A DNA stretch of 64,000 nt, taken from Escherichia coli (lineage in GTDB: Bacteria; Pseudomonadota; Gammaproteobacteria; Enterobacterales; Enterobacteriaceae). Position numbers and translations under genes: made by a program. A model generated the notes under the pieces. The model was not told the DNA's origin. It worked only from the letters and a program-made list of their open reading frames with translations, and ran no database searches. Positions 11,424-46,918 of this stretch are shown here, in pieces; position 1 is the first letter of the stretch; each line of letters starts with the position of its first letter. The stretch is taken from NCBI RefSeq assembly GCF_041248615.1, contig NZ_CP158426.1, one strand, 5' to 3'.

Positions 11424-11452
11424 CAATGAGGGTTGCCTGGCAACCCTCATTG
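11424..11452. terminator. hairpin terminator between yeeX and pduV (convergent)
   Basis: caatgagggttgcc-tgg-caaccctcattg perfect inverted repeat. Confidence 0.55.
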
Positions 11453-11510: not shown

Positions 11511-11954
11511 TTAGCGACAGCCTTCTTCTGTATGCAGCAAGGCAAAAAGTTCTGCAACTCCATTGTTATTAACCGCACTGGTTACTAACACATTGTGCGC
11601 TCCAGCTTCCCGTAACCAACTTTTCACCAAAGATATTTGTTCCATGCTGGCTAAATCTGCTTTGGTGACTACTCCAATGACCGGGCGATTCATTGACGAG
11701 GTAAAGCCTGGCGAAAAAGGGGACCACGGTGCGTCCGCATTAAGCACCAGGGCGATAATGTCCGCTTCGCAGGCGCTGACCAACAGAGCACTGTAGAGGC
11801 TGCGGTTTTCGAGGTATTCGCCTGGTGTATCAATGGTGGTCGGGGACCAGACGATTGCCTGCGTTTTCTGATAATGAATATTTTCGCCACGCAGACATTG
11901 CGTGAGTGACGTTTTTCCGCACTGGCTGGGGCCGATGAGCATCATACGTTGCAT
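11511..11954 (-). CDS. pduV: EutP/PduV-family small GTPase
   Basis: 147-aa ORF with P-loop GPSQCGKTS; last gene of pdu operon. Confidence 0.85.
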
Positions 11955-11958
11955 AACG

Positions 11959-12309
11959 TCAGGTCCGCGTAATGGGGCAGGCGGTAAAGCGCATCATTTC
12001 ACCCAGCGTACGGGTAACCTGGCTAAGTGCATATTCAATGGCAGAAACATCACCAGTCAGCACTACGGCACCGGTAAAACGATCAAGAAAACCGATCTCT
12101 ACAGCGCCTGATTTTGTGGCGATATCACATGCGATGATAGATGCTTCGCTGGGGGTAATTGTCAGAATGCCAATAGCAGAAACGGTGTCTGGTAAACCCA
12201 ATTTCTTAAACAGATCCTTCCCTGGATTGGCGATGACATGTGCCAGCGTGACCTGCTTACCAGGGACATATTCCTGAATCATCCGTTCAGTTGTGTGCTG
12301 AGTTGTCAT
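11959..12309 (-). CDS. pduU: BMC shell protein PduU (circularly permuted BMC domain)
   Basis: 116 codons from [19 protein letters not shown]; start overlaps pduT stop by 1 nt. Confidence 0.85.
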
Positions 12310-12863
12310 TATCCCTCCACCATCTGACGCCACATGGCTTCATGTGGACGGGCAATCACCGACCGATAGACCAACAAACCTTTTTCTCCCGCACGCTCGC
12401 TGGCGACAGAGACCGCGTTATTAACATCTGAAATATCGCCAGCAACCACCATGTAGCATTTACCGCCAATGCCAAAAGCCATATGCACGCGAACAAGAAT
12501 GACATTCGCAGCTTTGACAGCACAATCGGCAGCGTCAATGCAGGCGGCGACACTCCAGGTTTCGACTACGCCGACAGCCCGGTGCTGTTCAACTTGGTTC
12601 AGTCCGCTGGTTGCAGAAAGGAGGCTGGGATGAATATTCGGCAGGACAAGACTGTCGACCAGCATTTCACCAGCAAGGGAAGCACCGCTGTTGATGGCCT
12701 GTTGCACCGCGCCCACATCGCCACCGAGCATCAGCAGAAATTTTCCGGGGCATAGCGTTTTGCTGACCAGTAACTCAACGTTGGCGCTTTTCAGCATGGC
12801 GTCGCCGGTTTCCATCCCTTTCGCGATACTGCTAAGTTCTAAAATACCTACCGCTTTCGACAT
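12309..12863 (-). CDS. pduT: BMC shell protein PduT (tandem BMC domains)
   Basis: 184-aa ORF with two BMC-like repeats ([11 protein letters not shown]..., [14 protein letters not shown]...). Confidence 0.88.
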
Positions 12864-12865
12864 CG

Positions 12866-14209
12866 TTAACCTCTCACAAGCGTAATCGCGTTTTCTGTCA
12901 CATCGCTGACCATGCCATCAATACTGGCATGAATGGGGGCACCTAATGTGCCGTGTGGAATTTGACCTACACATTGCCCATGAACGACGCGATCGCCTTT
13001 TTGTACACACGCAATTGCGCTGGCACCGATGTGCTGGCGTAACAATAACGTCACTTTTTCGGTCTGAGGCACCTGTTCAGACAATGGCGCATCCTGATAC
13101 CACGGGGTTAAGCCAAGTCTGGTTACCAGCCGTTTTACGGGAATCAGTCGATAATTTGCCATGGGATCTGCAGGATTTAAGGTACCTTCGTAACGGAGAT
13201 TTTGTGCGCGTAATTCTTGCTTAAGCAGGCGGTTTATGCGCATTGGTGAAATTCCTACCGGACAGGCGACGCTGGCGCAGACGTTGCACTCCGAACAGGT
13301 GAGCGCCGTCAGTAACAGTTGTGGCGTAGCGAGCTGTTGGTAGTTAACCGCACGTACTAATAAATGGGGTGCCAGTTCGTGACCGATTAAATGACGTGGG
13401 CAGAGATCGGTACACAAGCGGCATTGCTCACAAACAGTTTTCGCGACGGCAAGTACGCTGCGGTCATTCTGCATTCGACGTTGGATCAGTGAATGAGAGT
13501 TGGGTAAAACCAGCAAGCCGCCAGTGGTTTTGCTGACTGGTGTGTCGAGCGATGTGATCAAACTTCCCATCATCGGCCCGCCATTGATAAAACCAGGAGC
13601 ATCCACTGTTGCGCCGCCCGCCAGCGCCAGGACTTCACGTAAAGACATGCCGATGGGGACGGTTACCGTTATTGGTTTCGCCACTGCACCATTAACGGTG
13701 AGTGTGCGGCGCGTCACTGGATACTGTTGCTCGACGGCTCTGGCAATATTAAGTACGGTTTGAACATTATTGACCACCACACCGACGTTAACGGGTAATG
13801 CAGCGGGTGGAACACGGCGACCAGTTGCCATCCAGATGGTCAGCACTTCGTCTCCTGCGGGGTAAACGTCGGGCAAAATATGCAGGCGGATATCCGGTGG
13901 TAACAGTGGTGTGAGTGCGTTTATTGCCCGTTGATATTTCTCTTTCAGCGCGATGATTCCGCTACTGGCCCCGGTGGCTTTCATCGCATAGTGAACACCG
14001 CGAAGCAGGCGGCTGGCTTGCTGCGCCATTAACTGTTGATCCACTTTCAACATTGGTTCGCATTCCGCCGCATTCACCAGGAACGTGTCAACACGCGCTT
14101 GTAGCTTAATATGGGTTGGGAAACCTGCGCCGCCAGCACCCACGACACCAGCTGCCTGTACTCGCTCGCGGATGGTCTGGTCGTCGCAGGAGGTTAACTC
14201 GACGTTCAT
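12866..14209 (-). CDS. pduS: cobalamin reductase PduS (RnfC/NuoF-like Fe-S flavoprotein)
   Basis: 447-aa ORF with two CxxCxxCxxxCP ferredoxin motifs ([25 protein letters not shown]) and N-terminal glycine-rich nucleotide-binding motif. Confidence 0.88.
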
Positions 14210-15318
14210 AACAACTCCTCGAGCAGTTCTGCAATAGCGGTGGCATCAGCCGTACGCGGGTTGGTACGCAACGTTGCATCCGCCAGTGCCGCCTGAACCA
14301 TATCTGGTATGCGTATTGACCATTCTGCTTTTTTTTCTTTCAGCACATTGGTAAGAGTCGGTAGCTTACAGGTTGTTTTAAGCTGTTCAATATGTTGAAT
14401 AAGTATATTCAGGCTGGCGGTGTCATTGGCGTTGTCCGGGCATAAATGGCACGTTTTCGCCAGCCGGGCGTAGCGTTTGGCAGCGCGCGGATCGCCAGCA
14501 TTAAAGCGGATAACCGCCGTGAGCAGGAGCGCATTCGCCAGGCCGTGTGGCAGATGAAACTGTCCGCCGAGTTGATGAGCAATTGCATGGTTTAATCCCA
14601 GTCCAGCCTGGCTAAAGGCCATTCCTGCAAGTGTCGATGCATTATGCATTTTGCCACGGGTGGCGAGACAATCGCCTTTCTTCACTGCAGTGGGCAGGTA
14701 TTGAAAAACAATTTGCACGGCTTTTTCGACCAGTGCATCCGTGAAGTCGCTGGCGCGGGGAGAAACATAAGCTTCAAGCGCATGGGTTAAAACATCCATC
14801 CCGGTATTGGCCGTTATCGCCGGTGGCACGCTGACGATCAGAGATGGATCAAGGATCGCGATATCCGGATAAAGTGCATTATCGAAAAGGGGATATTTAA
14901 TCCCTTTCTCAGGATCGCTGATGACACAAGCACTGGTCACTTCGGAACCGGTACCGCTGGTGGTAGGAATGGCTACGCAGGTTTCAATTTCAATGCCACA
15001 CTGGCGACCGAACCAGACAATCGCTTTTGCGGCGTCCAGGGCAGAACCGCCGCCAAAACCGATAACCACATCCGGGCGTAAAGTCTGCATTTGCGCAATG
15101 CCTTTCACCACGGTCTGGATAGTTGGGTCGGGCGTTATTTCGCTAAAAATACTAAGACGATTACTGTCGGGCAGCGCCTGATGCAACGTGTTAATGAGTG
15201 GTGAGCGTGCCAGAAAGACGTCGCAAATAATCCAGATGTGTTTATGAGAGAAACGGCTAAGTACCTTGAGACTTCCCGGTCCGCTGTATAAACGCGTCTG
15301 CAGTGAAAAAGTATTCAT
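14206..15318 (-). CDS. pduQ: 1-propanol dehydrogenase PduQ (iron-containing alcohol dehydrogenase)
   Basis: 370-aa ORF with GGGS...D motif and His-rich metal site typical of Fe-ADH; overlaps pduS start. Confidence 0.88.
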   Translation of the reverse strand: MNTFSLQTRLYSGPGSLKVLSRFSHKHIWIICDVFLARSPLINTLHQALPDSNRLSIFSEITPDPTIQTVVKGIAQMQTLRPDVVIGFGGGSALDAAKAIVWFGRQCGIEIETCVAIPTTSGTGSEVTSACVISDPEKGIKYPLFDNALYPDIAILDPSLIVSVPPAITANTGMDVLTHALEAYVSPRASDFTDALVEKAVQIVFQYLPTAVKKGDCLATRGKMHNASTLAGMAFSQAGLGLNHAIAHQLGGQFHLPHGLANALLLTAVIRFNAGDPRAAKRYARLAKTCHLCPDNANDTASLNILIQHIEQLKTTCKLPTLTNVLKEKKAEWSIRIPDMVQAALADATLRTNPRTADATAIAELLEELL

Positions 15319-15328
15319 TTCCGTTTCT

Positions 15329-16714
15329 CTAGCGAATTGAAAAGCCGCTGGTTAACACGCAGCGTCGTGAGCGGGCAAAAGTCCGTGCTGACGTTGTCCC
15401 TTCTCCGGTCGGTGTTGCAATGGTAAAGGTCGTAAAGCCTTCGCCGCCGACGCCAATACCCGCCCAGGAGGGGCCGTTTTTGACAAAGATTGAGGTTTGC
15501 ATAACGCGTGCGGTAAGGTTGAGCCGTGAGACGTTCTGCGAGTGCATAATTGCCGTGTGGTGCAAGCCGTCTTCCACTTTCAGCGCCAGGGTGAGAGCGC
15601 TATCAAAATCGTTGACCTTCACAATGGGCAGCATTGGCATCAGTTGTTCACAAGTAACCCAACTATCATTGGCGTCGACAACAGCAATCAGTAGGCGCGG
15701 CGCTTTTGCGGGCAAAGGGAGGCCTGCCGCTTCCAGCAAGGCTGATGGGCTTTTCCCAACCAGTTTTTTGTTGGCGCTACCGTCTGGCAGGCAAATTGCA
15801 CGCAATTTCTCCGTTTGCTCATAGTTAAGAAGAAGCGCGCCAAAACTTTGCATCTGCTGAATTAAATAATCTGCCACTGATGCCACGACAATCAGGCTTT
15901 TTTCAGCAATACACGGCAGGTTGTAATCAAATGAAGCGCCGTTGATGATGTCCTCGGCGGCTTTCACAATATCCGCCGTTTCATCGACGATGCACGGAGG
16001 GTTACCCGCTCCGGCACCAATCACTTTCTTGCCACTTTTCATTCCCATGGCGACGATCCCCGGACCGCCGGTAATCGCCAGAACGCTGATTTTAGGGTGC
16101 GCCATCATCTGTTCGGTTGCAGCAAAGGTCGGTTCAGATACGGTAACGATCAGGTTATGAATGCCACTACAACGAAACGCGATGTCTTCGATTGTGGTAA
16201 TCAGTTTTAACGAAACGTATTTGGCTCCCGGGTGTGGACTGAAGTAGACGCTATTACCTGCTGCCAGCATGCTGATGCTGTTGTTAATGATGGTTTCCGT
16301 GGGGTTGGTGCTTGGCGTGACCGAGCCAATAACCCCAAACGGGGAGTATTCAAACAAAACCATGCCACCATCACCGGTTAGTGCAGTGGTGGTTAAATCT
16401 TCAATTCCTGGCGTGTTATCAAGTGCCGCTTTGTTTTTTAGGTACTTATCTTCTTTATTTCCCATCCCCGTTTCTTTGGCGCTTTCTTCTGCCAGTTCGG
16501 TCAGGCGGGGTATTAATTCTTCGCGAATGGCGCTGATAATGGCGCTACGGGTTTTAAGCGGGCACTGTTGAAAGCGTAAAAAGGCCTGGTGTGCTGCGCA
16601 GACCGCTTCATCAACAGTCTGGAAAATAGCGTTTCTTTGCATTCGTTGCGTAGCGGGGGCAAGCTGCTCACGCAGAATATTGCGGATCAGTGTTTCTAAT
16701 TCAGAGTTATTCAT
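15329..16714 (-). CDS. pduP: CoA-acylating propionaldehyde dehydrogenase PduP
   Basis: 461-aa aldehyde dehydrogenase-family ORF (catalytic Cys context PCIAEKS). Confidence 0.88.
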   Translation of the reverse strand: MNNSELETLIRNILREQLAPATQRMQRNAIFQTVDEAVCAAHQAFLRFQQCPLKTRSAIISAIREELIPRLTELAEESAKETGMGNKEDKYLKNKAALDNTPGIEDLTTTALTGDGGMVLFEYSPFGVIGSVTPSTNPTETIINNSISMLAAGNSVYFSPHPGAKYVSLKLITTIEDIAFRCSGIHNLIVTVSEPTFAATEQMMAHPKISVLAITGGPGIVAMGMKSGKKVIGAGAGNPPCIVDETADIVKAAEDIINGASFDYNLPCIAEKSLIVVASVADYLIQQMQSFGALLLNYEQTEKLRAICLPDGSANKKLVGKSPSALLEAAGLPLPAKAPRLLIAVVDANDSWVTCEQLMPMLPIVKVNDFDSALTLALKVEDGLHHTAIMHSQNVSRLNLTARVMQTSIFVKNGPSWAGIGVGGEGFTTFTIATPTGEGTTSARTFARSRRCVLTSGFSIR

Positions 16715-17718
16715 TGGTTTACTCCCACGTTAATTGCCGCCATTGCGCTTTGGGCAATATCCATGTCTTGTTCAACGCTACCACCGCTGATGCCAAGCCC
16801 CCCGAGCAATATTCCGTCACGCCAGAGGGGGAAGCCGCCACCAAAGGTGACGACTTTGCCTTGCATATGGCTTTCGAGCCCGTAAAGCGGCGCGCCGGGT
16901 TGCACGGTATCAGCAAGTTTGTGGGTTGCCGTTTTCATCGCCACGGCAGTCCAGGCTTTTTTCGGTGCCAGTTCACTGCTGACCAACAGGGCATCAGGCA
17001 TCCGCCAGGTAACACTTTCTGTTCCGTTGGCATCAACAATGCTGATGACAACGGGAATATGCAGTTCATCCGCGCGCATTGCCGCACTACGAATGAGCTG
17101 GTGAAGATCCTGAAAAGTGAGCGGCATTGTGCGTTCCTTCAATGCTGGTGTGTGGTTGGCTTTGTGATAACGTTTTGTGATTTCCTGAATTATCAGGTTT
17201 TGATGAGCGACGTTGTCTTCCACGCGGGCGAGGGCATACAGGCAATCGGAAAGTCGGTTGATATAGTGCAGCAAAACATTCCGGACGGTGATTTCCGTTG
17301 TCAGTTCAACCAGACGTCTTTCAGCACGTCGAGCCACCGTGCGGGCGAAATGCATACGGCTTGCAGCTTCACATCGCCCAGGCAGAATGAAGCTGTGAAC
17401 TGGGGGGACGGCGTTCATTGCGCTATCGATCGCGTTTTCCAGCGCGGCAATTTCTTCCGTACCGATGTAACGCAGCTGCGCTGACGGCTGTTCGCTTTCA
17501 CTGGCAAGTTCGGCGCTAAACCAAAATATCTGTTGTTGAATGGCTTCCAGTAAGATGCGATGGCTTTCGATGGCGGTGGCGCAATAACACAGACTGAGTG
17601 TCGCGTTCAGTTCATCCAGCGTGCCATAGGTTTCGACACGTAGATGAGTTTTGCTGACGCGCTGTCCGGTAAATAAAGACGTACTTCCTGAATCACCTGT
17701 TCGGGTATAAATTGCCAT
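16711..17718 (-). CDS. pduO: ATP:cob(I)alamin adenosyltransferase PduO (PduO-type ATR + C-terminal DUF336-like domain)
   Basis: 335-aa ORF beginning MAIYTRTGDSGSTSLFTGQRVSK (PduO-type ATR N-terminus). Confidence 0.88.
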   Translation of the reverse strand: MAIYTRTGDSGSTSLFTGQRVSKTHLRVETYGTLDELNATLSLCYCATAIESHRILLEAIQQQIFWFSAELASESEQPSAQLRYIGTEEIAALENAIDSAMNAVPPVHSFILPGRCEAASRMHFARTVARRAERRLVELTTEITVRNVLLHYINRLSDCLYALARVEDNVAHQNLIIQEITKRYHKANHTPALKERTMPLTFQDLHQLIRSAAMRADELHIPVVISIVDANGTESVTWRMPDALLVSSELAPKKAWTAVAMKTATHKLADTVQPGAPLYGLESHMQGKVVTFGGGFPLWRDGILLGGLGISGGSVEQDMDIAQSAMAAINVGVNQ

Positions 17719-17729
17719 CTTTCAGCTCC

Positions 17730-18005
17730 TTAGCGCGAAAGCGTATCGACAATGCCGACCACTGCCAGGTCGATGGCCTCGTTAGGGCCGGAAAACACAT
17801 GTCTGGCGCTGGAACCACTGCTGAGGAGTACCAACTCACCAACGCCTGCGCCGACTGAATCAACGGCAACTTCGTCGCCGGTTAATGGCGTGAGAGGCAG
17901 TTCGCCGTCAGCACTGACCCGGCGAACCAGCAGCAGTTTTTTCCCGATCAGAGATGGTGATTTTTGCGTGGATACTACCGCGCCAGTGACTCGAGCCAGA
18001 TGCAT
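17730..18005 (-). CDS. pduN: BMC vertex protein PduN (EutN/CcmL family)
   Basis: 91-aa [30 protein letters not shown]... Confidence 0.85.
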
Positions 18006-18008
18006 AGG

Positions 18009-18500
18009 TTACTCCTGCCTAATTAACTGAATATTTCGGGTAATTGCCGCTTCACGAGCCAGTGCGGTCACACAACATTTCCGCTGTAACACCAGTATTC
18101 CCGAGCTTAACTGTGCGATATCGGCATAACTTAAAAGTCGATCACGATGAAGGTAGATCGGTTGCCCTTGTTCGTCGCACCAGCTTAGCGGTAGACGGGC
18201 GAGAGTCTTCAATTCAATGGCGTTCAGGAAATGACGCTGCAACGACAATTGAATGTGCATTCCCCAGGCTAACGCTTCGTGTATCTGGATTGCTGCTCGA
18301 TCTGACGTTTCGTTCTCCGCAAGTTGTCGCAGCAGCGGCAGATCGACATATCGGATTTGTAATGACGCATACTGATGAACGCTCTCTTGAACGCTGGCGT
18401 CTCGCAGTTGAAAAACAGTCAGCACGAGTGCTTTTCTCGCACGTTGTTTAAGGCGAAAAACCACCTCGTCAACAATACGTTGCATCAGCATGTTATTCAT
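18009..18500 (-). CDS. pduM: microcompartment protein PduM
   Basis: 163-aa ORF in conserved position between pduL and pduN. Confidence 0.8.
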   Translation of the reverse strand: MNNMLMQRIVDEVVFRLKQRARKALVLTVFQLRDASVQESVHQYASLQIRYVDLPLLRQLAENETSDRAAIQIHEALAWGMHIQLSLQRHFLNAIELKTLARLPLSWCDEQGQPIYLHRDRLLSYADIAQLSSGILVLQRKCCVTALAREAAITRNIQLIRQE

Positions 18501-19129
18501 GGCACTGACACCAGTGTGGCAAAAACGTCAGGGCTATCAGCGCCTGCGGCGTTGGCCTCATCGGTATCAATATGCATTTCAAGACGCATATCCGGAGAGA
18601 CGCGAACAGCGACGTTTTCGAATATCAGTCGTCGCTCACCACCTTCAATGGCAACCGCCACTTTATCGCCATGCGTAACGCCATAAATCAGGGCATCCAG
18701 CGGAGACATATGAATATGCCGTTGCGCGACAATGACGCCAGATGTGATCTCCAGTTCCGCAAATGGGCTTATCAAACGAATCCCCGGAGTGCCGCTGAGA
18801 TCGCCTGACATGCGTAGCGGGGCGGTGATCCCTAACGTTCTGGCGTCCGTCCGGGAAATTTCCACCTGGCTTGCATTGCGTAGCGGCCCCAACAAGCGAA
18901 CGTTGTGCAATTTGCCTTTTGGTCCCTCCAGCGTAACAACCTGTTCAGCAGCGAATTGGCCAGGTTGCATTAACGGCTTTTTCTCGCTAATCGGTTGTTC
19001 AGGAAAAAGACGCAAATAATCCGCTGTTGAAAGATGAATATGGCGACTGGAAACGCCCAGTGGGATAGGGCGCTCGCGCATCTCATCCAGAATCTGGCTC
19101 ACTGTTTCCTGCAGGGTTTGTTTATCCAC
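18497..19129 (-). CDS. pduL: phosphate propanoyltransferase PduL
   Basis: 210-aa ORF; conserved position and size; His-rich metal-site residues (RHIHLS, RHIHMS). Confidence 0.85.
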   Translation of the reverse strand: MDKQTLQETVSQILDEMRERPIPLGVSSRHIHLSTADYLRLFPEQPISEKKPLMQPGQFAAEQVVTLEGPKGKLHNVRLLGPLRNASQVEISRTDARTLGITAPLRMSGDLSGTPGIRLISPFAELEITSGVIVAQRHIHMSPLDALIYGVTHGDKVAVAIEGGERRLIFENVAVRVSPDMRLEMHIDTDEANAAGADSPDVFATLVSVP

Positions 19130-19131
19130 TG

Positions 19132-19554
19132 CTACTCCCCTCGCTTATTGGCGTACAGGCAAAGTGAGCGGGGCTCACCTTTTTGCCGCTGACATGCCGG
19201 GTCAAGACACAAATTACAACTGATAATCTCTGAGGTGACGGTTGTTGCTGGTGTTTTGCTTGTTTCAACCGTCACGGTCAATGCTTCAATTGTGTGGGGC
19301 AGAATGCCGTCTCCCGGGCGGGCAATCACTTTGTGTGCGACAAGGCCATTTCGCTGTCCGGCGAAACTGGCTCCCGTCGCGATCGCCGCATTAACCGAGG
19401 CGACGTCACCGGTGATTTTGATGAGCGTCCAGCCTGAGCCATTGGTCTTCTCAAGGCCAACCAGCGTGATGGACGCGGCTTTTGCCATAGCGTCTGCGCA
19501 ACTGATGGCGAGAGCCAGACCACTGACTTCAAGTAATCCCAGTGATTGCTTCAC
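19132..19554 (-). CDS. pduK: BMC shell protein PduK (BMC domain + Cys-rich C-terminal tail)
   Basis: 140-aa ORF; N-terminal BMC domain (LGLLEVSGLALAISCADAMAKAA) and C-terminal CNLCLDPAC motif. Confidence 0.85.
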   Translation of the reverse strand: MKQSLGLLEVSGLALAISCADAMAKAASITLVGLEKTNGSGWTLIKITGDVASVNAAIATGASFAGQRNGLVAHKVIARPGDGILPHTIEALTVTVETSKTPATTVTSEIISCNLCLDPACQRQKGEPRSLCLYANKRGE

Positions 19555-19577
19555 GCTGTGCTCCTTAGCGAATGGGG

Positions 19578-19853
19578 TTATGCTGATTTAGGTAAAATAG
19601 CCTCAACATCACTGTGTGGGCGCGGGATGACATGGCAGGATTTCACTTCGCCAACGGCGCTTGCGGCGGCGCTTCCTGCATCAACGGCGGCTTTTACTGC
19701 GCCAACATCGCCACGGACCATCACCGTAATCAGACCCGAACCAATCTTTTCATAGCCAACCAGCTGCACGTTGGCGGATTTAACCATGGCATCTGCAGCT
19801 TCAATTGCGCCAACTAACCCTTTTGTTTCAACCAGTCCTAGTGCGTTGTTCAT
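19578..19853 (-). CDS. pduJ: BMC shell protein PduJ
   Basis: 91-aa canonical BMC-H protein [29 protein letters not shown]... Confidence 0.9.
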
Positions 19854-19872
19854 ACTGCATTTCTCCTGTGGA

Positions 19873-20223
19873 TTATGAGTGGAGTTCCCGGAAGGGAATC
19901 CCTTTTACCAGGCGGGCAGCGTTAGAGCCAATGCTGCGCCGGGCATGGTTATCTTGTTGATACATCAGCGTAAACAGTGGCGCTGATGCCGGTAAGTTTT
20001 TGTAATGCACAATCAGTTTTTCCTGATCGCAGGCAATGCCAACCAACAGGGGAGATTGACTAGCAGCCAGCCAGGCGCTATCGATAACTTCACCTGACGG
20101 AATGTGTTGAATGCGAAAGGGAATACCTTCCTCTTCAATGCCAAGAAGCACCTCATCCCATATAGTGATGCAGTTACCGATCTCCATGACGACGATGGCT
20201 GGTGCACGCTCTTTACTTTCCAT
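19873..20223 (-). CDS. pduH: diol dehydratase reactivase small subunit PduH
   Basis: 116-aa ORF overlapping pduG stop; conserved position. Confidence 0.85.
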
Positions 20224-22045
20224 GAATCGACTCCTTGTGCCAGGCGATGAGTAGCCCAGTAGCTACCGCGTTGCGCGGACCTTCGCTACCACGGATATTC
20301 CCCCGTCCGGCGACCAATCGATAATGCGCCAATGCATCGGTGACTAACTGCGGTACTTCGAAATCCAGCGAAGAACCGCCCACCAGAACGACGAACGGAA
20401 TATCGCGAATATTTCCGGCAGGGCTTACCTGACGTAGCGCGCGCAGGGCATTGGTTACGAAGACACGCTCTTTCGCACTGCGGCGGACAGCGCGTACTTT
20501 TTCCAGCGTCAAATCACCGGGAATGGGCACCAGTTCGTCGGGTTTCACTACACAGACGCGGGCAAATACATGGGGGGATAGGGGAGTAGGGAAGAACTGA
20601 ACGCTGCCATCTTCATGGCGTAAGTGGAACAGGCTTTCTACTTTTGCCAACGGGTACTTTTTGATTTCTTCTGCCAGATAACGATCATTTAAGCCCAGCT
20701 CACGAGCGATAATCATCGTTACCATGTCGCCCGCTCCCGCAAGGTGAGTGGCAACAATTTCTCCTTTCTGATTGATGATGGAGGCATCGGTAGAGCCTGC
20801 ACCTAAGTCCAGAATTGCCAGTGGACGTGTGGTTCCAGGGGTAGTCAAGGCCCCCTGAATGGCGGCTTCTGCTTCTGCGCCTCCGACCTGAACATCAACA
20901 TGCAGTTTTTGCTTAATTTCACTGGCGATCATTGCCATTTGCAGACGGTCGGATTTCACCATAGAGGCAATACCCACAGCCTGTTCCAGTGAAAATTCAC
21001 CTGCCAGACCGCCGGTTACGCTGACGGGGACAGAGGTATCTATCGCCAGCAAATCCTGAATAAAAATTTCGTTGCTGGGTTTGTTGGTCAGTTCCGCCAT
21101 GGTCTGGCGAACATGTTCCAGCATTCCGCCGATGTTGGTGCCTGGTTTTCCCGTCACGTTTTCCAGTTTTGGGCACTCACCGACCGCTTTCATAATGGCA
21201 TCGGCACCAGCAGCTACATCAACGCGCGTTGTGCGCCCGGCAGAAAGCAGTTCGATATTTCCGGCGGGTATCGAACGGGCTTTAACGTCGCCAGAAGGCG
21301 TTTTCACTACCACTGCTGAACGGTTGCCGATTAGCGCCCGCGCGACAGGAACAATATTTTTAGTCTCTTCAGCATTGAGGGCGAAAACGGTGGCAATCCC
21401 ATACGGGTTAGACAGGGTTTCGATAACTTTCCCGGGAACGGCAACTTCAATTGCAGCCAGCATGCCGAGCGGAATACGATCGATGTAGAGGACTTCATCA
21501 ACAATAGGTACAGCAATTTCCAGGCGGTTACTGACCAGCACGCCATCGTCGCGTTGCAGAATAACGCCAGTCAGCTGATATCCGGCACGTACGGAGGCGT
21601 TTATCATCGTCGCGATATCGGCAAAATCAAATGCCGATGACACCACCAGGATGTAAGGTGTGTCCGCCGGGCGTGTTAATAACTCTTGCGGAGTGATGGT
21701 GAGCCCTACGCCCAGCCCCACTCCGCCCGGAGTTTTCGGGTTGTGACCGATCATGGTTGATTCAGTGATGATGGTTTCAGTGATGGTTTCCATCGCCACA
21801 TCACCAATGACCGGAGTTGCTTCGTTGATACGAATAAGCGAAATATCGCTAACATTGATGCCGACTTTTTTCGTTGCCTGTGCGAGCGCCTCCTGAATAC
21901 CATGGACGTTACGCAACGTACCTTTAATTCCGGTGGTTTCCGCCAGGGCGCTACTCACGAACGACAACTCTCCAGTTGCACTGAGCGTTGCCAGCGCAAC
22001 CTCTGTTGATGAGTTGCCGATATCAATGCCTGCTATATATCGCAT
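20213..22045 (-). CDS. pduG: diol dehydratase reactivase large subunit PduG
   Basis: 610-aa ORF MRYIAGIDIGNSSTEVALA... (ASKHA/actin-like ATPase N-terminus). Confidence 0.9.
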   Translation of the reverse strand: MRYIAGIDIGNSSTEVALATLSATGELSFVSSALAETTGIKGTLRNVHGIQEALAQATKKVGINVSDISLIRINEATPVIGDVAMETITETIITESTMIGHNPKTPGGVGLGVGLTITPQELLTRPADTPYILVVSSAFDFADIATMINASVRAGYQLTGVILQRDDGVLVSNRLEIAVPIVDEVLYIDRIPLGMLAAIEVAVPGKVIETLSNPYGIATVFALNAEETKNIVPVARALIGNRSAVVVKTPSGDVKARSIPAGNIELLSAGRTTRVDVAAGADAIMKAVGECPKLENVTGKPGTNIGGMLEHVRQTMAELTNKPSNEIFIQDLLAIDTSVPVSVTGGLAGEFSLEQAVGIASMVKSDRLQMAMIASEIKQKLHVDVQVGGAEAEAAIQGALTTPGTTRPLAILDLGAGSTDASIINQKGEIVATHLAGAGDMVTMIIARELGLNDRYLAEEIKKYPLAKVESLFHLRHEDGSVQFFPTPLSPHVFARVCVVKPDELVPIPGDLTLEKVRAVRRSAKERVFVTNALRALRQVSPAGNIRDIPFVVLVGGSSLDFEVPQLVTDALAHYRLVAGRGNIRGSEGPRNAVATGLLIAWHKESIHGK

Positions 22046-22054
22046 AGTTCGTCC

Positions 22055-22573
22055 TTAATCGTCGCCTTTCAGTTTTTTGCGCTCGACATAAAGTTCCGCA
22101 GCTTCACGGACAAATGCAGCACAAATTTTGGCCTGATAACGCCGTTCAAGATCGTCAGCAATGGCAATAAGTTCTTGCTTAGTCGAACGATAAGGGCGTA
22201 ACGCATTGTAGATTTCGAGGATGCGATCATCCGGTACTGAGGTAAGCTCAGCGGCGCGTTCAAAATTCATCGCCAGGCGATCGCGACCAGCATCTCTGGC
22301 AATCGCGGCCTGAATACGCAATGTTTCAGGGGTTATACGCATATCCTGGGCGGTGACGTTATCGCTGAGTACATTTTCCAGAGTGAAATCGTCGAGCGTT
22401 TTATTGGTCGCCGTTTTAACCCATTCCGGATGTTTATTTGCCAGCGGATAATCCGTCACTTTGGCGCTCTGTATTGACGCGTTGGGTGCCGCAGAAACAG
22501 GAGCTGCATCCTGTAAACTGTTCATGCGATTCAACACGTCCCTGACCATCGACTCAATTGCATCGGTATTCAT
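22055..22573 (-). CDS. pduE: propanediol dehydratase small (gamma) subunit PduE
   Basis: 172-aa ORF in conserved order after pduD. Confidence 0.88.
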   Translation of the reverse strand: MNTDAIESMVRDVLNRMNSLQDAAPVSAAPNASIQSAKVTDYPLANKHPEWVKTATNKTLDDFTLENVLSDNVTAQDMRITPETLRIQAAIARDAGRDRLAMNFERAAELTSVPDDRILEIYNALRPYRSTKQELIAIADDLERRYQAKICAAFVREAAELYVERKKLKGDD

Positions 22574-22587
22574 GAAGGTTTCCTTTG

Positions 22588-23256
22588 TTAAAACGTCACG
22601 CGCAGTTCTTGCGGTTTTTTGCCAGTGACCACGTACTTCGTCTCTTTAATATGCAAAATGGCAGATTTGGCCTGGTATTTCGGCCGCGCCATTTGATCGT
22701 TGAGGGTCGGCACCGGTTGTGGAGACTCACGCTTTGCATAACGCGCGGCGTTTTTGCCAATCTGACGATAAGTTTCCAGCGTCAACAAAGGCGCTTGTGG
22801 GAATAGTTCCAGGTTAGACAAGGGAGGAAGACCTTGCTGGTGGATAACCGTTGTGCCTTTCGACTGAATACCGATAGCAATACCTGAACCACTAAGACGA
22901 TCGCCTTCGACTGCTACGAATGCGACATCGGACGATTTAAAGCAGCGAATCACACGGGCTTTAATGCCTTCTTCTTCGATACCAGCAATCACTTCGCGCA
23001 AGATGTTTTTATGCGGAATACCGATGATATTGACGGTTTGCGCCAGGCCGAACGCCGGGCCTACAGCAATAATGACTTCATCTTGCTGAGTGCCTTGTTG
23101 GGCTTCGCCAATTTCGGCCAGAAAAGTTCCGGTATCTGGCGCGGAAGAGACAGTTGCACAGGCAGGTGCGCGAAATGAAACGGGCTTGTCGCTGGTTTGC
23201 ATTTCTGCCAGCACGTCTTCGATAATCTGACGCAGTAATTTTTCGTTAATTTCCAT
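22588..23256 (-). CDS. pduD: propanediol dehydratase medium (beta) subunit PduD
   Basis: 222-aa ORF in conserved order after pduC. Confidence 0.88.
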
Positions 23257-23265
23257 TTCTCACCC

Positions 23266-24930
23266 TTAGTCAATTTCGTTGGGATCAAGTGCACCGGGAA
23301 TATTTTTGATCTCTTCCCAGCGTTCCCCTTGCAGGCGGTAACCTGTAGCCGGTCCGGCGTAATCATTGACGTCATTGACCGCAGAGAGCACTTGTCCGTC
23401 ATCGACGATGATGGCTGAGGTATGGAGATAATCGCCGGTCAGTTTTGCTTTTTGCATGTTGAGCATGTCTTGGGCGACATCGGTAAAACCGCCTTGCGCC
23501 AGGGCTTTCACCACTTCCAGGCTGTTCCGGTTTTTATTGATAATCTCCTGGGCGAACTTGATGTCTTCCACAATATTGCGCTCAGGCATATCTTTTGAAC
23601 CGTGGGCATAGGTTGCCGCTTCGACTTCTTCATCGGTAATAGGCGGTAGTCCCATACCGGCAAAGACAGCCTGTAAAGCGCGAGCGGCTTTATTGCGGAT
23701 AGCGATAACATCTTCTTCGCGTACTGGTCGCAGGCCGCCATCAACCTTCAGGTCACGCTGAATGACGTTGTAATCATCGAAGTCTTCAGCATCTTCGTTT
23801 GAACCAGCAAACATGTTGTCGTAGTTCGGCACAGCGGAAAAACCGGAAGAGATAAAGTCGGTACCTGGCAGAAACTGCATCAGGAAACGTGCGGTACGGC
23901 GCATATCCGAGTGGGTAAAGGTCTGGTCATTACTGGAGGCGCATTCCAGATCCAGCGATGAGCAAATTAAGTTTTCCGCTAATACTGCGCGGATGCCTGA
24001 TGGCACAGCCGATGGAACACCGATGCAGCTTACCGAACCATTCTGTAGACCCTGAACTCCTGCGGCTTTGGTGATGTAAATGCAACGAGCCTCGAGATAA
24101 AGCATTGATTTGCCTTCCGCGTAACCCATCTGTACTTCAGAGCCGGAGCCGGAAGTAAAGCGCATTTTTAAGCCGCGAGACGCATAGGATGACGCGAGAA
24201 ATCCTTTTGACCACGGGGTGTCATCGCCATCGGTGAAAACAGGTTCTGTACCATAGACAGAAATTGTTTCGGCGTAACAGGTGTGGCCTAACATACCGAG
24301 TTTCAGTTCGGTGGCTTCTTCCAGTGAACACTGGGTCAAGACGCCCGGACGTCCCACCTGTGAGCCGACCAGCAGGGCGATGGCGTTGAACGGGGCATAG
24401 CGAGCAACGGCAACGGTGGTTTCCTGTTCATCAAACCCGCGCCATGCGCCTTCAGCTGCGTCGGCGGCAATTTGTACCGGGTTATCTTTGACGTTGGTGA
24501 CGTGAGCCTGTTGTGATGGTGTTCGACGGGCGCGCATTTTCTGCATCGCCATCATCATCTCTACCACGTTCATCTGCGAAACAACTTCGACGATTTTTGC
24601 AGGCGTCATTGCTGTGGTAAGGGGAACGATATCGCTACGTTTGACATTTGGATCGCACAACATATTGGCAAGTTTTACCGAATCCATCGCGATGACTTCT
24701 TCTGCACGCGCGAGATTGATGCCGTAGCGGGCGATAAAGTGGTCGATCAGGTCAAACTGGCTGGCGGGTTTTCCATCCAGTTCGGTAACGACGCCGTTAA
24801 CAATTTTGATTGACGGTTTAGGATCGTTCGGGCTTTCCATCGCAATGAAGCCTTCTTCAATCCACTCTTTAACGAAACCGTCCTGGTTGACCGGGCGTTT
24901 TGCCAGTGCTTCAAATCTTTTCGATCTCAT
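23266..24930 (-). CDS. pduC: coenzyme B12-dependent propanediol dehydratase large (alpha) subunit PduC
   Basis: 554-aa ORF MRSKRFEALAKRPVNQDGFVKEWIEEGFIAMESPNDPKPSIK... Confidence 0.92.
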   Translation of the reverse strand: MRSKRFEALAKRPVNQDGFVKEWIEEGFIAMESPNDPKPSIKIVNGVVTELDGKPASQFDLIDHFIARYGINLARAEEVIAMDSVKLANMLCDPNVKRSDIVPLTTAMTPAKIVEVVSQMNVVEMMMAMQKMRARRTPSQQAHVTNVKDNPVQIAADAAEGAWRGFDEQETTVAVARYAPFNAIALLVGSQVGRPGVLTQCSLEEATELKLGMLGHTCYAETISVYGTEPVFTDGDDTPWSKGFLASSYASRGLKMRFTSGSGSEVQMGYAEGKSMLYLEARCIYITKAAGVQGLQNGSVSCIGVPSAVPSGIRAVLAENLICSSLDLECASSNDQTFTHSDMRRTARFLMQFLPGTDFISSGFSAVPNYDNMFAGSNEDAEDFDDYNVIQRDLKVDGGLRPVREEDVIAIRNKAARALQAVFAGMGLPPITDEEVEAATYAHGSKDMPERNIVEDIKFAQEIINKNRNSLEVVKALAQGGFTDVAQDMLNMQKAKLTGDYLHTSAIIVDDGQVLSAVNDVNDYAGPATGYRLQGERWEEIKNIPGALDPNEID

Positions 24931-24948
24931 AAATCTGCCTCAGAGAAT

Positions 24949-25761
24949 TCAGATGTAGGAAGGGCGATCGTTTTTCGGTGTATCGCCGAGAGTCGAAAGC
25001 ACGGTTTTACCGATTTCGCGTGCGGAGATGACCGCCTGGCGGACTGCGCCGGAGTCACCCGAGATAATCAGAATGACTTCATTGCTGTAGCTGGTGCCTT
25101 GAGCGGGGGAGCTGTATGCCACAACATCCACATTGGCGGACTTCAGCGCGGTGTCTGCCATCAGAACACCCACAGCAGCCGGAGCGCCGACAATAACGCC
25201 GCAAGCCCGTCCCAATGGTGCACCAAACGCTTTTTCCAGTGCATAGCTGGCGCGGGCGGTATATTGCAGCTCAAGATGTCCGGCTTCGTTGGCATAGACA
25301 TCGCCAAAGGTTCGATCGAGTTCTTTCAGGGCAACTTCAATACCGCGTTTCACGTCGGAAACATCGTTGCCACCTAAGAGGATCAATGAGCCGTGTCCGG
25401 CACCGCCTTTAGTATCGCGAGGAAGTTCAATGCTAATAACTTCAGTGTTGGTGGCTTTTACCGCTTCATCAGCGGCCATAATGTGTGGACCTGCGCCAAT
25501 ACGCGCACCCAGAATGCCAATGGAACGATAGCGTTTTTCAAGTTTCATTGCGTCCAACAGGGCGCTATCAACGTTCGCAATGACCAGACCTACAGTGTCG
25601 CCAATAGCGGTGCCAACAAATTCTGTTAATGTGCAGCTTTTTTCTGCCATAGCCGTCTCTCGTATTTGATGAGTGGTTTTCGGGAGAACCTCATGCTCTG
25701 GCGTCGCTACGCGAGCGATGACCTGCGCCATGATCTGTTCGACCAGTTCATTGCTGCTCAT
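24949..25761 (-). CDS. pduB: BMC shell protein PduB (tandem BMC; internal start at Met38 would give PduB')
   Basis: 270-aa ORF; second in-frame Met 37 codons in matches the known PduB/PduB' arrangement. Confidence 0.9.
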
Positions 25762-26042
25762 GGGTTAATTCCCTTTGGTAAGATTTTTTCGACATCGGTA
25801 TGTGGGCGGGGAATAACATGTACGGCTTTTACTTCGCCGACGTTACGCGCAGCTGCGGCACCTGCGTCTGTTGCCGCTTTTACCGCCCCGACATCACCAC
25901 GAACGATGACGGTCACCAGCCCGGAACCTATTTTTTCGTAGCCGACCAGCAAAACATTTGCCGACTTCACCATGGCGTCTGCGGCCTCTATGGCGGCAGT
26001 TAAGCCTTTGGTTTCTACCATTCCTAACGCTTCTTGTTGCAT
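25758..26042 (-). CDS. pduA: BMC shell protein PduA
   Basis: 94-aa canonical [34 protein letters not shown]...; first gene of operon. Confidence 0.92.
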
Positions 26043-26553
26043 AAAGACCTCGCCTGGATTTTTTTGACGATATGACTATAAAAAAAAGCGAGGAAAAAGA
26101 ATGGCTGACTTAATCGGCTAATGAGAAAAATTAATAGAGAACAAATATTATAAAATTGCTTTTATGAACTATATGTTGTTAATTTATTAGTTGTTTTGTG
26201 GATATTTCAATGTGAATTAATTGCGTTGGCTAGTGAGTTTAATCGCGAGTAATATTTCGTTGAGTTTAGTTCGAGGAAGGAACTGTGATATTTGTTTCAA
26301 TTTTATTATATCATGATGGCAATTTTTTATTGTGAAAGTTTGACAGTAATTATTACTTTCAACACTGATTAACGCTGTGTTGCATGATTCGGCAATGACA
26401 ATAATTTGTTATGTTAGCACGATTTTTACACGAGTCTGTCATGCATGTTGGCAATATTTTCTGCAGAGCAATTTTTTATAGTTGCGCTCGGTATACACAA
26501 CAATCAGCGCATAGTTGGCTGATAAAGAAAAACTCCGTAAAGAAGGTGTCACT
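26043..26553. promoter_or_regulatory. divergent pdu / pduF-pocR control region
   Basis: 510-bp AT-rich non-coding interval between divergently oriented pduA and pduF; in Salmonella this interval carries PocR-, CRP- and IHF-dependent promoters. Confidence 0.6.
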
Positions 26554-27363
26554 ATGAATGATTCACTCAAGGCGCAATGCGTTGCCGAGTTTTTAGGCAC
26601 CGGACTGTTCCTCTTTTTTGGCATTGGTTGTTTGTGCGCCCTGAAAGTTGCCGGGGCAAGTCTGGGACTGTGGGAAATTTGTATCATTTGGGGGTTAGGG
26701 ATTTCGCTTGCTGTTTACCTTACGGCAGGTATTTCCGGCGCTCATCTCAACCCGGCAGTTACCATTGCTCTGTGGCTGTTTGCCTCTTTCCCAGCCCGTA
26801 AAGTGCTGCCATTTTGTGTGGCGCAATTAGCGGGTGCTTTTGGTGGTGCGATTCTGGCATATTCTCTCTACAGCAGTTTATTTACCGATTTTGAATCTGC
26901 TCACAATATGGTGCGTGGTAGCGCAGAAAGTTTACAACTCGCCAGTATCTTCAGTACTTATCCGGCAGCGGCGATTAATGTATGGCAAGCTGCGTTGGTC
27001 GAAGTGGTCATAACGTCCATGTTAATGGGGTTGATTATGGCGTTGACCGATGACGGTAATGGCGTACCCAAAGGACCACTTGCGCCTTTACTTATTGGTA
27101 TTCTGGTTGCTGTTATTGGTGCTTCTACCGGACCATTAACCGGTTTTGCCATGAATCCAGCGCGTGATTTTGGACCTAAGATTTTCACCTGGCTTGCGGG
27201 GTGGGGAGAAATTGCGATGACTGGTGGACGCAATATTCCTTATTTCATTGTACCCATTATTGCACCGATCATTGGGGCATGTGTTGGTGCGGCGATTTAT
27301 CGCTATCTCATTGCAAAGAATTTACCTGTCAATAGTGTAGCGCCTAAAGAAATTAGCGAATAA
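26554..27363 (+). CDS. pduF: propanediol diffusion facilitator (MIP/aquaglyceroporin family)
   Basis: Two NPA motifs (HLNPAVT, AMNPARD); start placed at MNDSLKAQ (ORF track extends 13 codons upstream); start uncertain. Confidence 0.85.
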   Translation: MNDSLKAQCVAEFLGTGLFLFFGIGCLCALKVAGASLGLWEICIIWGLGISLAVYLTAGISGAHLNPAVTIALWLFASFPARKVLPFCVAQLAGAFGGAILAYSLYSSLFTDFESAHNMVRGSAESLQLASIFSTYPAAAINVWQAALVEVVITSMLMGLIMALTDDGNGVPKGPLAPLLIGILVAVIGASTGPLTGFAMNPARDFGPKIFTWLAGWGEIAMTGGRNIPYFIVPIIAPIIGACVGAAIYRYLIAKNLPVNSVAPKEISE

Positions 27364-27565
27364 CGAAATAATCTGGCAGTTATAAACGTTTATTTTTTTA
27401 CTGTTTGTGATCTGCTTTCCGAACTTATTAAAAAGTCTCCCGCTTCATGGAGGCTTTTGTTATTGTCCTTTGTGCTTCTCGTCAGTAAATCATCAGGGAT
27501 GATGTGAAGATTAAATGTAAAACAATTGTTTTGCTATAACAATAAATTAACTGGGAGGTTTTATC

Positions 27566-28480
27566 ATGATTTCTGCGGCGACACTTAATTCAGAACTCAT
27601 TAATAAAATCGCGCAGGATTTTGCGCAGGCGACCAGCCTTGCGGTTGTCGTGGTCAATATTCACGGCGATGAAATTTCCGAGCTGTTTAACTTCACTCCA
27701 TTTTGTCAGATGATGCGGCAACACCCTCAGCTAAGCACTCGATGTCGCATGAGCGATCGTTGTGGGGGCCTGGAAGCCTCTAAATCCGATCAGCCTTGTA
27801 TTTATCGCTGTCATGCCGGATTAACCGATTTCTCTATTCCACTGGTAATCGCCGGGCATTTAGTCGGTTTTGTATTGTGCGGGCAAGTTCGTCTGCGTAA
27901 TGATGATGTCGATTTGGTCGATATTCTGAATGTCGATGATTGCTGGCAGGCAGATCCCGAATTACTTAATGAATTCCGCAAAGTTCCTGAGATGGATTAC
28001 TCAAGAGTTATGGCCTCTGCTGATTTGTTGAAGTTGATTGTGGAAAATTGCCTCAAAAAACAACTCAATTTTGTGGTTATTAAAGAGAACAAATTTCAGT
28101 CAGATTCGGTGCGCCAGACTCGTGCGCCTAATCCCCACGACAATAAAATGAAAAAAGCTTTACGCTATATTGATGCGCATTTATCAGACGATTTGCGTCT
28201 GGAAGATGTCGCCTCGCACGTTTATCTAAGTCCTTATTATTTCAGTAAGTTATTCAAGAAATACCATGGAATCGGTTTTAATGCGTGGGTAAACCAACAA
28301 CGGATGGCCAGCGCTCGTGAGTTACTGTGCCATAGTGACTGGAGCATCGCCAGTATTGCGCGTAATTTAGGTTTTTCGCAAACCAGTTATTTTTGCAAAG
28401 TTTTCCGTCAGACTTATCAGGTTACGCCGCAGGTGTATCGACAGCAAGTGAGTGAAAATGCGGTGATGGAAACGGTATAG
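27566..28480 (+). CDS. pocR: AraC-family regulator of pdu/cob expression PocR
   Basis: 304-aa ORF, C-terminal AraC-type HTH (YLSPYYFSKLFKKYHGIGFNAWVNQQRM...), position next to pduF. Confidence 0.88.
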   Translation: MISAATLNSELINKIAQDFAQATSLAVVVVNIHGDEISELFNFTPFCQMMRQHPQLSTRCRMSDRCGGLEASKSDQPCIYRCHAGLTDFSIPLVIAGHLVGFVLCGQVRLRNDDVDLVDILNVDDCWQADPELLNEFRKVPEMDYSRVMASADLLKLIVENCLKKQLNFVVIKENKFQSDSVRQTRAPNPHDNKMKKALRYIDAHLSDDLRLEDVASHVYLSPYYFSKLFKKYHGIGFNAWVNQQRMASARELLCHSDWSIASIARNLGFSQTSYFCKVFRQTYQVTPQVYRQQVSENAVMETV

Positions 28481-28584
28481 AGTAAATGCCCCAAAAAAAG
28501 AGGACGGTTTAAATAAACTCTGCAATGAATAATTAACGTTATTTACCTGTTATGGGAAAAGTGAAATCAGCTCATAACATACGC

Positions 28585-28735
28585 TGACAGGTGTGGCACA
28601 TTTGTGCCTGGGAAGAGGGTGAAAATCCCTCGCAGCCCCCGCTGCTGTAATGCTGACAAACCCGAAAATGCCACTGATCGCGAGATTGGGAAGGTCGGGA
28701 GAGGATGACGCTAAGCCAGAAGACCAGCCAGTCAG
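28585..28735 (+). promoter_or_regulatory. cobalamin (adenosylcobalamin) riboswitch
   Basis: Conserved core gggaagagggtgaaaatccctcgcagcccccgctgctgtaa and B12-box-like gccactg...gggaaggtcgg...agccagaagaccagcc; same position as the Salmonella cob operon leader. Confidence 0.75.
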
Positions 28736-28964
28736 TCAATACCAACAACTTCGGTGGGAAGTGGGTTGCCCGGAAGCGTCCGGTAGAGTACCGGCGCGTC
28801 TTTATACCCCTACCACCCTGAAAGGATCAGGGTATGGCGGCATCATTTAGTTCTTTCATCGCAGTGCCGACAGGCACCAGGGCTGCACTTAAGGTGTGGC
28901 AATCTTGTTTCATGGCTCATCAACCAGACCGCCATTACAGGAAACTAAGTGGAGGGCGAGAGGC

Positions 28965-29402: not shown

Positions 29403-29535
29403 TGGATTGAGAATGCTGGATTTTTAATTATATTACGCGCAGTATTAATCGCGTAAATGTTTTGCGGTCAGCAACGGTGGGGGATCCATTGTTCTGTTCA
29501 ATGAATACCATCATACAATTGAATCAGGAGTCGGT

Positions 29536-30821: not shown

Positions 30822-30832
30822 AGAGACGTGAC

Positions 30833-39852: not shown

Positions 39853-39871
39853 GTGATTACAGGGTAATCAC
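39853..39871. repeat. third GTGATTA palindrome
   Basis: gtgattac-agg-gtaatcac; same half-site as the two palindromes at 38950 and 39177. Confidence 0.55.
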
Positions 39872-46916: not shown

Positions 46917-46918
46917 GT

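Follow-up and report, generated by a model that had tools for sequence, protein, structure and literature searches.

An intact 19-gene pdu operon between tmaR and cobU of Escherichia coli, next to the remains of a cbi operon

Does this stretch of Escherichia coli DNA encode a working propanediol microcompartment, and where does the locus come from? The question concerns a window of 64,000 nucleotides (nt; the window is here always the whole stretch that was analysed), in which an earlier note had described a pdu locus between yeeX (tmaR) and cobU: 19 genes in a row and a divergent pduF-pocR pair. The pdu operon allows gut Enterobacteriaceae to use 1,2-propanediol—a product of fucose and rhamnose—and has in E. 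coli been linked to adherent-invasive strains from Crohn's disease. The locus in the window is very probably the enterobacterial pdu locus in its native Escherichia form and encodes a B12-dependent propanediol microcompartment. As such, an intact 19-gene pdu microcompartment operon is an already known, ordinary E. coli system, and its presence here extends the list of carrier strains by one without adding anything of a new kind.

The list of open reading frames (ORFs) in the window shows an unbroken series of 19 ORFs on the minus strand, from 26042 to 11511, which read pduABCDEGHJKLMNOPQSTUV. Two plus-strand ORFs, pduF and pocR, complete the locus, and the interval ends, at 11511 and 28480, exactly with the pduV and pocR stop codons. 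Positions 2019672-2083671 of E. coli NRZ14408 (NZ_LT599825.1) match the window with 100% identity, and for them RefSeq annotation by the Prokaryotic Genome Annotation Pipeline (PGAP) names all 21 genes (pduA-pduV, pduF and pocR) and not a single pseudogene. ORF list and annotation thus confirm the gene content that had been proposed. In the order of transcription, with protein lengths in amino acids (aa), the genes are:

pduA, 25758-26042, minus strand: major BMC-H shell protein, 94 aa; PF00936; Lys26 and the pore residue Ser40 present; identical to PduA of the adherent-invasive E. coli strain LF82
pduB, 24949-25761, minus strand: tandem-BMC trimer, 270 aa; equivalog NF011944, 474 bits; internal Met38 start for PduB' conserved
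pduC, 23266-24930, minus strand: diol dehydratase subunit, 554 aa; NF011979, 1074 bits
pduD, 22588-23256, minus strand: diol dehydratase subunit, 222 aa; NF011616, 391 bits
pduE, 22055-22573, minus strand: diol dehydratase subunit, 172 aa; equivalog NF011971, 358 bits against a cut-off of 282
pduG, 20213-22045, minus strand: diol dehydratase reactivase alpha, 610 aa; TIGR04491, 959 bits
pduH, 19873-20223, minus strand: diol dehydratase reactivase beta, 116 aa; PF02288
pduJ, 19578-19853, minus strand: major BMC-H shell protein, 91 aa; PF00936, 103 bits; about 97-98% identity to Salmonella
pduK, 19132-19554, minus strand: BMC-H shell protein, 140 aa; PF00936; C-terminal Cys motif CNLCLDPACQRQKGEPRSLC
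pduL, 18497-19129, minus strand: phosphate propanoyltransferase, 210 aa; NF011652, 256 bits
pduM, 18009-18500, minus strand: microcompartment structural protein, 163 aa; NF011957, 246.8 bits, positions 1-162 of 162
pduN, 17730-18005, minus strand: pentameric vertex protein (BMC-P), 91 aa; PF03319, 95.8 bits; 93% identity to Salmonella
pduO, 16711-17718, minus strand: two-domain ATP:cob(I)alamin adenosyltransferase, 335 aa; Cob_adeno_trans (PF01923) and HbpS-like (PF03928)
pduP, 15329-16714, minus strand: CoA-acylating propionaldehyde dehydrogenase, 461 aa; NF011927, 717 bits, positions 1-465 of 465; N-terminal targeting helix conserved
pduQ, 14206-15318, minus strand: iron-dependent 1-propanol dehydrogenase, 370 aa, as in Salmonella (81% identity); Pfam Fe-ADH and ADH_Fe_C
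pduS, 12866-14209, minus strand: cobalamin reductase with flavin and Fe-S domains, 447 aa; Pfam Complex1_51K, SLBB, Fer4_17 and RnfC_N
pduT, 12309-12863, minus strand: tandem-BMC shell protein, 184 aa; TIGR02526, positions 1-181 of 182; Fe-S ligand Cys38 present
pduU, 11959-12309, minus strand: circularly permuted BMC shell protein, 116 aa; NF012012, 134.7 bits; 89% identity to Salmonella
pduV, 11511-11954, minus strand: EutP/PduV small GTPase-like protein and last gene of the operon, 147 aa; TIGR02528, 187 bits, positions 1-141 of 142; 69% identity to Salmonella
pduF, 26554-27363 (PGAP start), plus strand: propanediol diffusion facilitator of the MIP family; PF00230, 208 bits
pocR, 27566-28480, plus strand: AraC-family activator of pdu (in Salmonella also of cob); Pfam PocR (PF10114), HTH_AraC and HTH_18

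All 19 Pdu proteins align end to end with their Salmonella orthologues, taken from a reference locus that was retrieved through its exact PduN sequence. Identities range from 56% for PduM to about 97% for PduC, PduJ and PduA, and differences in length are limited to a shorter PduK linker (140 aa here against 155 aa as called in Salmonella) and a few residues in PduD, PduS and PduV. The NCBIfam and Pfam models are covered over essentially their full length by the Pdu proteins, PduF and PocR. Careful translation, which the earlier note had named as the check that could overturn its claim of intact genes, revealed no frameshift or internal stop in the 19 proteins compared with Salmonella; together with the full-length family models and the annotation free of pseudogenes, it leaves that claim standing. 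The same is true of the tight or overlapping junctions: within the 19-gene operon, neighbours overlap by at most 11 nt or are separated by at most 23 nt, and a Shine-Dalgarno sequence is visible before most pdu starts. In E. whittamii, PduK is called with 137 aa instead of the 140 aa of the window, from an earlier stop codon, which may affect the region of the C-terminal Cys motif.

By function, the operon holds every module of a propanediol organelle. The shell set comprises the BMC-H proteins PduA, PduJ, PduK and PduU, the BMC-T proteins PduB and PduT, and the BMC-P protein PduN, as assigned by Pfam and NCBIfam. The three subunits of the B12-dependent diol dehydratase, PduCDE, match their models over the full length and share 88-97% identity with Salmonella. 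Aldehyde processing is covered by PduP, PduL and PduQ, and maintenance of the cofactor by the reactivase PduGH, the adenosyltransferase PduO and the reductase PduS, the latter with 80% identity to Salmonella and both Cys clusters aligned. In addition to the internal PduB' start, the N-terminal encapsulation peptides are present: residues 1-16 of PduD—its targeting peptide—are identical to Salmonella, and the N-termini of PduP and PduL near-identical.

Two features outside the coding regions are of note around pduF:

26043-26553: divergent control region between pduA and pduF, AT-rich with a GC content of 0.40
27422-27505, minus strand: STnc230-like element between pduF and pocR; Rfam RF02075, 71 bits (gathering score 50)

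Within the control region, the roughly 60 nt adjoining pduA align almost identically with Salmonella (AAGTCAGCCATTCTTTTTCCTCGC...TTATAGTCAT), meaning that the promoter core is conserved; the transcription start in Salmonella lies 25 nt upstream of pduA (PMC7181861). The divergent pduF-pocR pair is arranged as in Salmonella, and PocR shares 89-91% identity with the proteins of Salmonella and Citrobacter. A consensus scan of 25900-29600 yielded fewer sigma-70-like sites than shuffled sequence and therefore carries no information on promoters. The STnc230 match overlaps a plus-strand terminator-like hairpin of pduF at 27431-27458 and recurs at the corresponding position in the loci of Salmonella, Citrobacter and other Escherichia; possibly it is no more than the antisense strand of the pduF terminator.

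How strongly has this locus been maintained? For a comparison within the genus, E. whittamii and two GTDB species clusters labelled E. coli were set against the window. Synonymous divergence (dS) from these three lineages is about 0.1-0.55, with values around 0.3 for most genes, while the ratio of nonsynonymous to synonymous divergence (dN/dS) amounts to 0.01-0.08 for PduA, PduB, PduC, PduG, PduF and PocR. The locus is under purifying selection, and its orthologue in LF82 is expressed: the entire LF82 operon, which the published data give as pduB to pduV with gene sizes equal to those of the window, is transcribed, and bile salts induce it (PMC6379400). A functional link comes from the pduC-positive E. 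coli strain CUMT8, where deletion of pduC abolished growth on 1,2-propanediol (PMC9220930); the CUMT8 locus was not compared with the window. For NRZ14408, organelle formation and growth on 1,2-propanediol would be strongly expected from this gene set.

That the locus sits exactly where K-12 lacks it is borne out. In K-12, the 12.7-kb cryptic prophage CP4-44 takes the place of window positions 11694-29230—that is, of pdu, pduF, pocR and, from the adjoining remains of a cbi operon described below, a riboswitch and most of a cbiG fragment (cbiG')—and is flanked by the stumps of pduV and cbiG'. The 183 bp of window 11511-11693, the 3' end of pduV, are retained inside the ORF yoeF (positions 17576-17932 of the K-12 locus L084), and homology resumes at 29231 with the 3' end of cbiG' (29231-29402) next to cobU, followed by cobUST. 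A literature search retrieved no paper linking yoeF with pduV. With a carrier defined as a genome holding at least 80% of window 11694-29230, the locus is found in 637 of 5426 complete E. coli genomes, about one in eight. About 200 complete genomes show a clean deletion that joins the 3' fragment of pduV to that of cbiG', and others bear IS1-mediated or internal deletions. For instance, strain SCPM-O-B-8794 lacks the region between pduL residue ~189 and pduO residue ~240, and in JNEC-KY203 an IS1 replaces pduP through pduF. Among adherent-invasive strains about 50% carry pdu, compared with 20% of the non-adherent-invasive ones (PMC9220930).

Is the locus also complete? At the end of the operon, pduV and tmaR are convergent with stop codons 100 nt apart, and their spacer contains one feature:

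11425-11451: inverted repeat of 11 bp, AATGAGGGTTG...CAACCCTCATT, read from the sequence

This repeat is probably a terminator hairpin shared by both genes. In Salmonella and Citrobacter, pduV is instead followed by pduW (404 aa, acetate/propionate kinase) and pduX (288-300 aa, GHMP kinase), and only then by the convergent tmaR and by yeeA. These terminal genes of the Salmonella-type locus, the propionate kinase pduW and the L-threonine kinase pduX, are missing here: tblastn with the Salmonella proteins detected no PduW or PduX homologue in the whole 64-kb window, and blastn with the Salmonella pduW-pduX DNA found no match among the 5426 complete E. coli genomes except in one unrelated second pdu locus. 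In E. whittamii, the operon comprises the same 19 genes and likewise ends pduV/tmaR without pduW and pduX. In Salmonella, both missing proteins reside in the cytosol and form no part of the organelle (PMC7181861); the microcompartment is hence complete, although the operon has two genes fewer than the reference. The description of the locus as complete is therefore right for the organelle genes and too generous for the operon, and likewise for the cbi genes, which are gone. The one exception among the complete genomes is a pduV-pduW-like segment in E. coli strain 48 from deer faeces (NZ_CP166879.1, 5258950-5260130), with 74.6% identity to Salmonella; it lies at a different chromosomal position and apparently belongs to a second, independently acquired pdu locus.

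At the other end, the placement between tmaR and cobU is correct, with the qualification that pocR does not adjoin cobU. The interval 28481-29535 is a scar of about 1 kb left by the cbiA-cbiP operon, which lies between pocR and cobU in the cob/pdu regulon of Salmonella. What remains of cbi is the riboswitch, the cbiA ATG, a 145-aa N-terminal fragment of CbiG and about 31 nt of cbiP:

28572-28746, plus strand: cobalamin riboswitch aptamer; RF00174, 109.4 bits against a gathering score of 31.5, positions 1-189 of 189
28747-28842, plus strand: expression platform and original cbiA ATG (28834), with a hairpin predicted by folding, CCCUGAAAGGAUCAGGG, that would sequester the ribosome-binding site before the ATG
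28834-28968, plus strand: 44-codon ORF from the cbiA ATG, its TGA overlapping the next ATG (ATGA)
28965-29402, plus strand: cbiG' ORF of 145 aa, a diverged CbiG N-terminal domain; NF004463, 68 bits, positions 1-125 of 351
29505-29535, plus strand: last ~31 nt of cbiP and the ribosome-binding site of cobU; blastn homology to Salmonella resumes at 29505
29536-31912, plus strand: cobU, cobS and cobT for corrinoid salvage and nucleotide-loop assembly (PGAP), 78-82% identity to Salmonella

A full aptamer well above the gathering score is thus followed by an expression platform, and a response to the ligand is predicted; positions 28568-28842 share 82% nucleotide identity with the Salmonella cbiA leader up to the ATG. 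The cbiG' ORF, 43% identical to residues 1-119 of Salmonella CbiG, is the sole remainder of cbiB-cbiO, and the roughly 200 nt of 29300-29505 could be assigned to no cbi gene. An interpretation of the 145-aa ORF as a CbiA-CbiP fusion was rejected, as it matches the CbiG N-terminal domain only. The 44-codon ORF is not significantly similar to the 3' end of cbiF; the two share no more than a faint H-x-Y-R-K resemblance. With about 14 kb of cbi operon gone, the strain must import corrinoid; cobUST is retained. The loss of cbi fits that of pduX, because PduX also serves B12 synthesis.

The scar does not seem to have drifted altogether neutrally. Among four Escherichia lineages, aptamer and platform are 94-96% identical, and the spacer before the riboswitch and the body of the leader ORF after it 81-82%. 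The riboswitch scores 109-111 bits in all Escherichia lineages compared, and the hairpin before the cbiA ATG is invariant among them. Length, frame and ATGA overlap of the 44-codon and 144/145-codon ORFs are kept in E. whittamii, two other Escherichia lineages and LF82. For cbiG', dN/dS is 0.45-0.60: the peptide sequences drift and the ORF stays open in four lineages—an outcome that random substitution at the observed divergence would give in about 5% of cases per lineage pair. Transcript data from LF82 list 'CbiG' (LF82_328) as expressed (PMC4509574).

A tentative explanation, which we consider somewhat less probable than its opposite, is that the cbi remnant is a maintained regulatory cassette. 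The riboswitch would gate translation from the old cbiA start into the 44-codon ORF and, through the ATGA overlap, into the coupled 145-codon cbiG' ORF; ribosomes kept on the leader might in turn allow transcription to read through into cobUST, which would place corrinoid salvage under B12 feedback. If true, pdu-positive Escherichia would have a control that K-12 has lost. K-12, without the riboswitch-leader cassette, still has functional cobUST. No specific account of a riboswitch before E. coli cobU came up in a literature search. The possibly maintained riboswitch-leader cassette upstream of cobUST is the one mildly new point, and only this and the Escherichia-specific reductions of the locus go beyond the textbook.

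How would the system work? By homology to Salmonella, PduF would admit the diol, and PocR together with 1,2-propanediol would activate the pduA promoter. PduA, PduB, PduB', PduJ, PduK, PduM, PduN, PduT and PduU would then build the polyhedral compartment, into which N-terminal targeting peptides would bring PduCDE, PduP, PduQ and PduL, while PduGH, PduO and PduS would keep adenosyl-B12 active. Propionaldehyde would be confined inside and exit as 1-propanol and as propionyl-phosphate or propionyl-CoA. Without cbi, B12 or cobinamide would be imported and completed by cobUST. Without PduW, presumable stand-ins are AckA or TdcD for the propionyl-phosphate, or propionyl-CoA might enter the methylcitrate cycle.

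Several points weigh against a functional native locus. PduM, PduK and PduH evolve fast, with dN/dS of 0.2-0.45 and 56-74% identity to Salmonella. Without pduW, the ATP yield from propionyl-phosphate rests on other kinases outside the window, and without cbi the pathway is useless unless corrinoid is supplied. On sequence alone, NRZ14408 may also bear a missense or regulatory defect. Finally, the locus has been deleted or disrupted in a number of E. coli lineages, so that selection for it is not universal.

The alternative that survives best, though we regard it as improbable, takes up the last two points: the locus might look intact and yet be silent or decaying in this strain, heading for deletion as has happened in most E. 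coli, and leaving it with no propanediol phenotype. About 88% of the complete E. coli genomes are without the locus, and independent losses are seen—the clean pduV'-cbiG' deletion, the CP4-44 replacement, the IS1 deletion and the pduL-pduO deletion—and one study saw low pduC transcription in the mouse gut. Nevertheless, 16.9 kb without a stop or frameshift and dN/dS far below 1 are not what decay would leave behind; promoter and PocR are conserved, near-identical loci are expressed, and a pduC-positive E. coli strain cannot grow on 1,2-propanediol once its pduC is deleted.

Could the dehydratase act mainly on glycerol, in a 3-hydroxypropionaldehyde (reuterin-type) pathway, instead of on 1,2-propanediol? 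Diol dehydratases accept glycerol, and PduC and PduD match subfamily models of the 'propanediol/glycerol family' only. PduE, however, scores 358 bits where its equivalog model demands 282, the locus includes PocR and PduF and is fully syntenic with the Salmonella pdu operon, and E. coli pduC mutants lose growth on 1,2-propanediol, all of which makes a glycerol pathway very unlikely.

Scarcely credible, finally, is that E. coli recently acquired the locus by horizontal transfer from Salmonella, Citrobacter or Klebsiella: the patchy occurrence in E. coli (637 of 5426 genomes) and the cob/pdu region of Salmonella, reportedly discussed by Lawrence and Roth in classical work as horizontally acquired, would suit it, but the closest relatives of the locus are found in other Escherichia lineages, with 92-95% nucleotide identity, the nearest non-Escherichia DNA is only 77-88% identical (with dS to Salmonella from 0.65 for pduA to 2.0), GC content is 0.49-0.54 like that of the flanks, pdu-negative K-12 keeps fragments of pduV and cbiG at the same site, and E. 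whittamii has the same Escherichia-specific scars in lacking pduWX and cbi.

An origin by descent agrees with the dS of about 0.3 between the E. whittamii locus and the window and with the cbi scar, which E. whittamii and other Escherichia lineages share at 83-88% identity over 1.3 kb. Because other Escherichia have the same scar and the same 19 genes, and because Salmonella and Citrobacter hold the full block at the same site, the locus appears as a trimmed, vertically inherited copy; the sharing with E. whittamii points to inheritance within Escherichia rather than to recent import. The native Escherichia locus is hence a trimmed ancestral cob-pdu block that has been deleted repeatedly within E. 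coli. This matters for strain typing based on pduC, and also for the expectation that the propanediol pathway is auxotrophic for B12.

Elsewhere in the window, an island at ~37200-47500 adjoins a tRNA-Asn gene (37198-37270) and carries two frameshifted integrase genes, an EFASI RNA (40706-40833), a C4 antisense RNA (42267-42355) and an RHS core protein gene (42735-46916). GC content in the latter is 0.55-0.64; beyond it lies an AT-rich stretch (GC 0.35) that includes a gene for a TPR protein. At 53837-61802, a 7.9-kb gene for a protein with immunoglobulin-like domains (a YeeJ-like adhesin) is annotated as frameshifted, as is the IS3-family transposase gene beside it at 62488-63640.

How, then, does the locus compare with known systems? 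Two records were set aside for this purpose. 'Escherichia sp. MOD1-EC7003' appeared to be an Escherichia with a full cbi operon, but contigs with the same PduN sequence are flanked by an aminotransferase and an amidase, not by tmaR; a metagenome-assembled genome labelled 'Citrobacter sp.', with 98% identity, is most simply explained by an E. coli contig binned into it.

Citrobacter, whose operon is commonly moved into laboratory E. coli, agrees with the window in gene order and site, with 90-91% identity for PocR and 97-98% for PduC, and differs by having pduW, pduX and a complete cbi operon. In Salmonella enterica, the order from A to V, the divergent pduF-pocR and the site between yeeA-tmaR and cobUST-ldtA are the same, and the pduA promoter core, the targeting peptides and the riboswitch are conserved. 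It differs from the window in the pduW (404 aa) and pduX (300 aa) that follow pduV, and in the 17 cbi genes between riboswitch and cobU (cbiABCDETFGHJKLMNQOP-cobUST-ldtA); dS is 0.65 for pduA, above 0.9 for the other genes compared, and reaches 2.0. The Salmonella arrangement is thus mirrored, as the earlier note had it, in the succession yeeA-tmaR, pdu, pduF-pocR, cobUST-ldtA, though not in pduW, pduX and the cbi genes. The locus of LF82 (NC_011993.1, 2083.4-2101.3 kb), on the other hand, is colinear with the window at 97.6% nucleotide identity over 18.1 kb, and shares with it the 19 genes, the gene lengths and the flanks—tmaR on one side and pduF, pocR, riboswitch, cbiG' and cobUST on the other. 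PduA, PduB, PduJ, PduN and PduU are identical in both, and only allelic differences of 0-19 amino-acid changes per protein separate the two loci, with PduQ as the most divergent at 94.8% identity.

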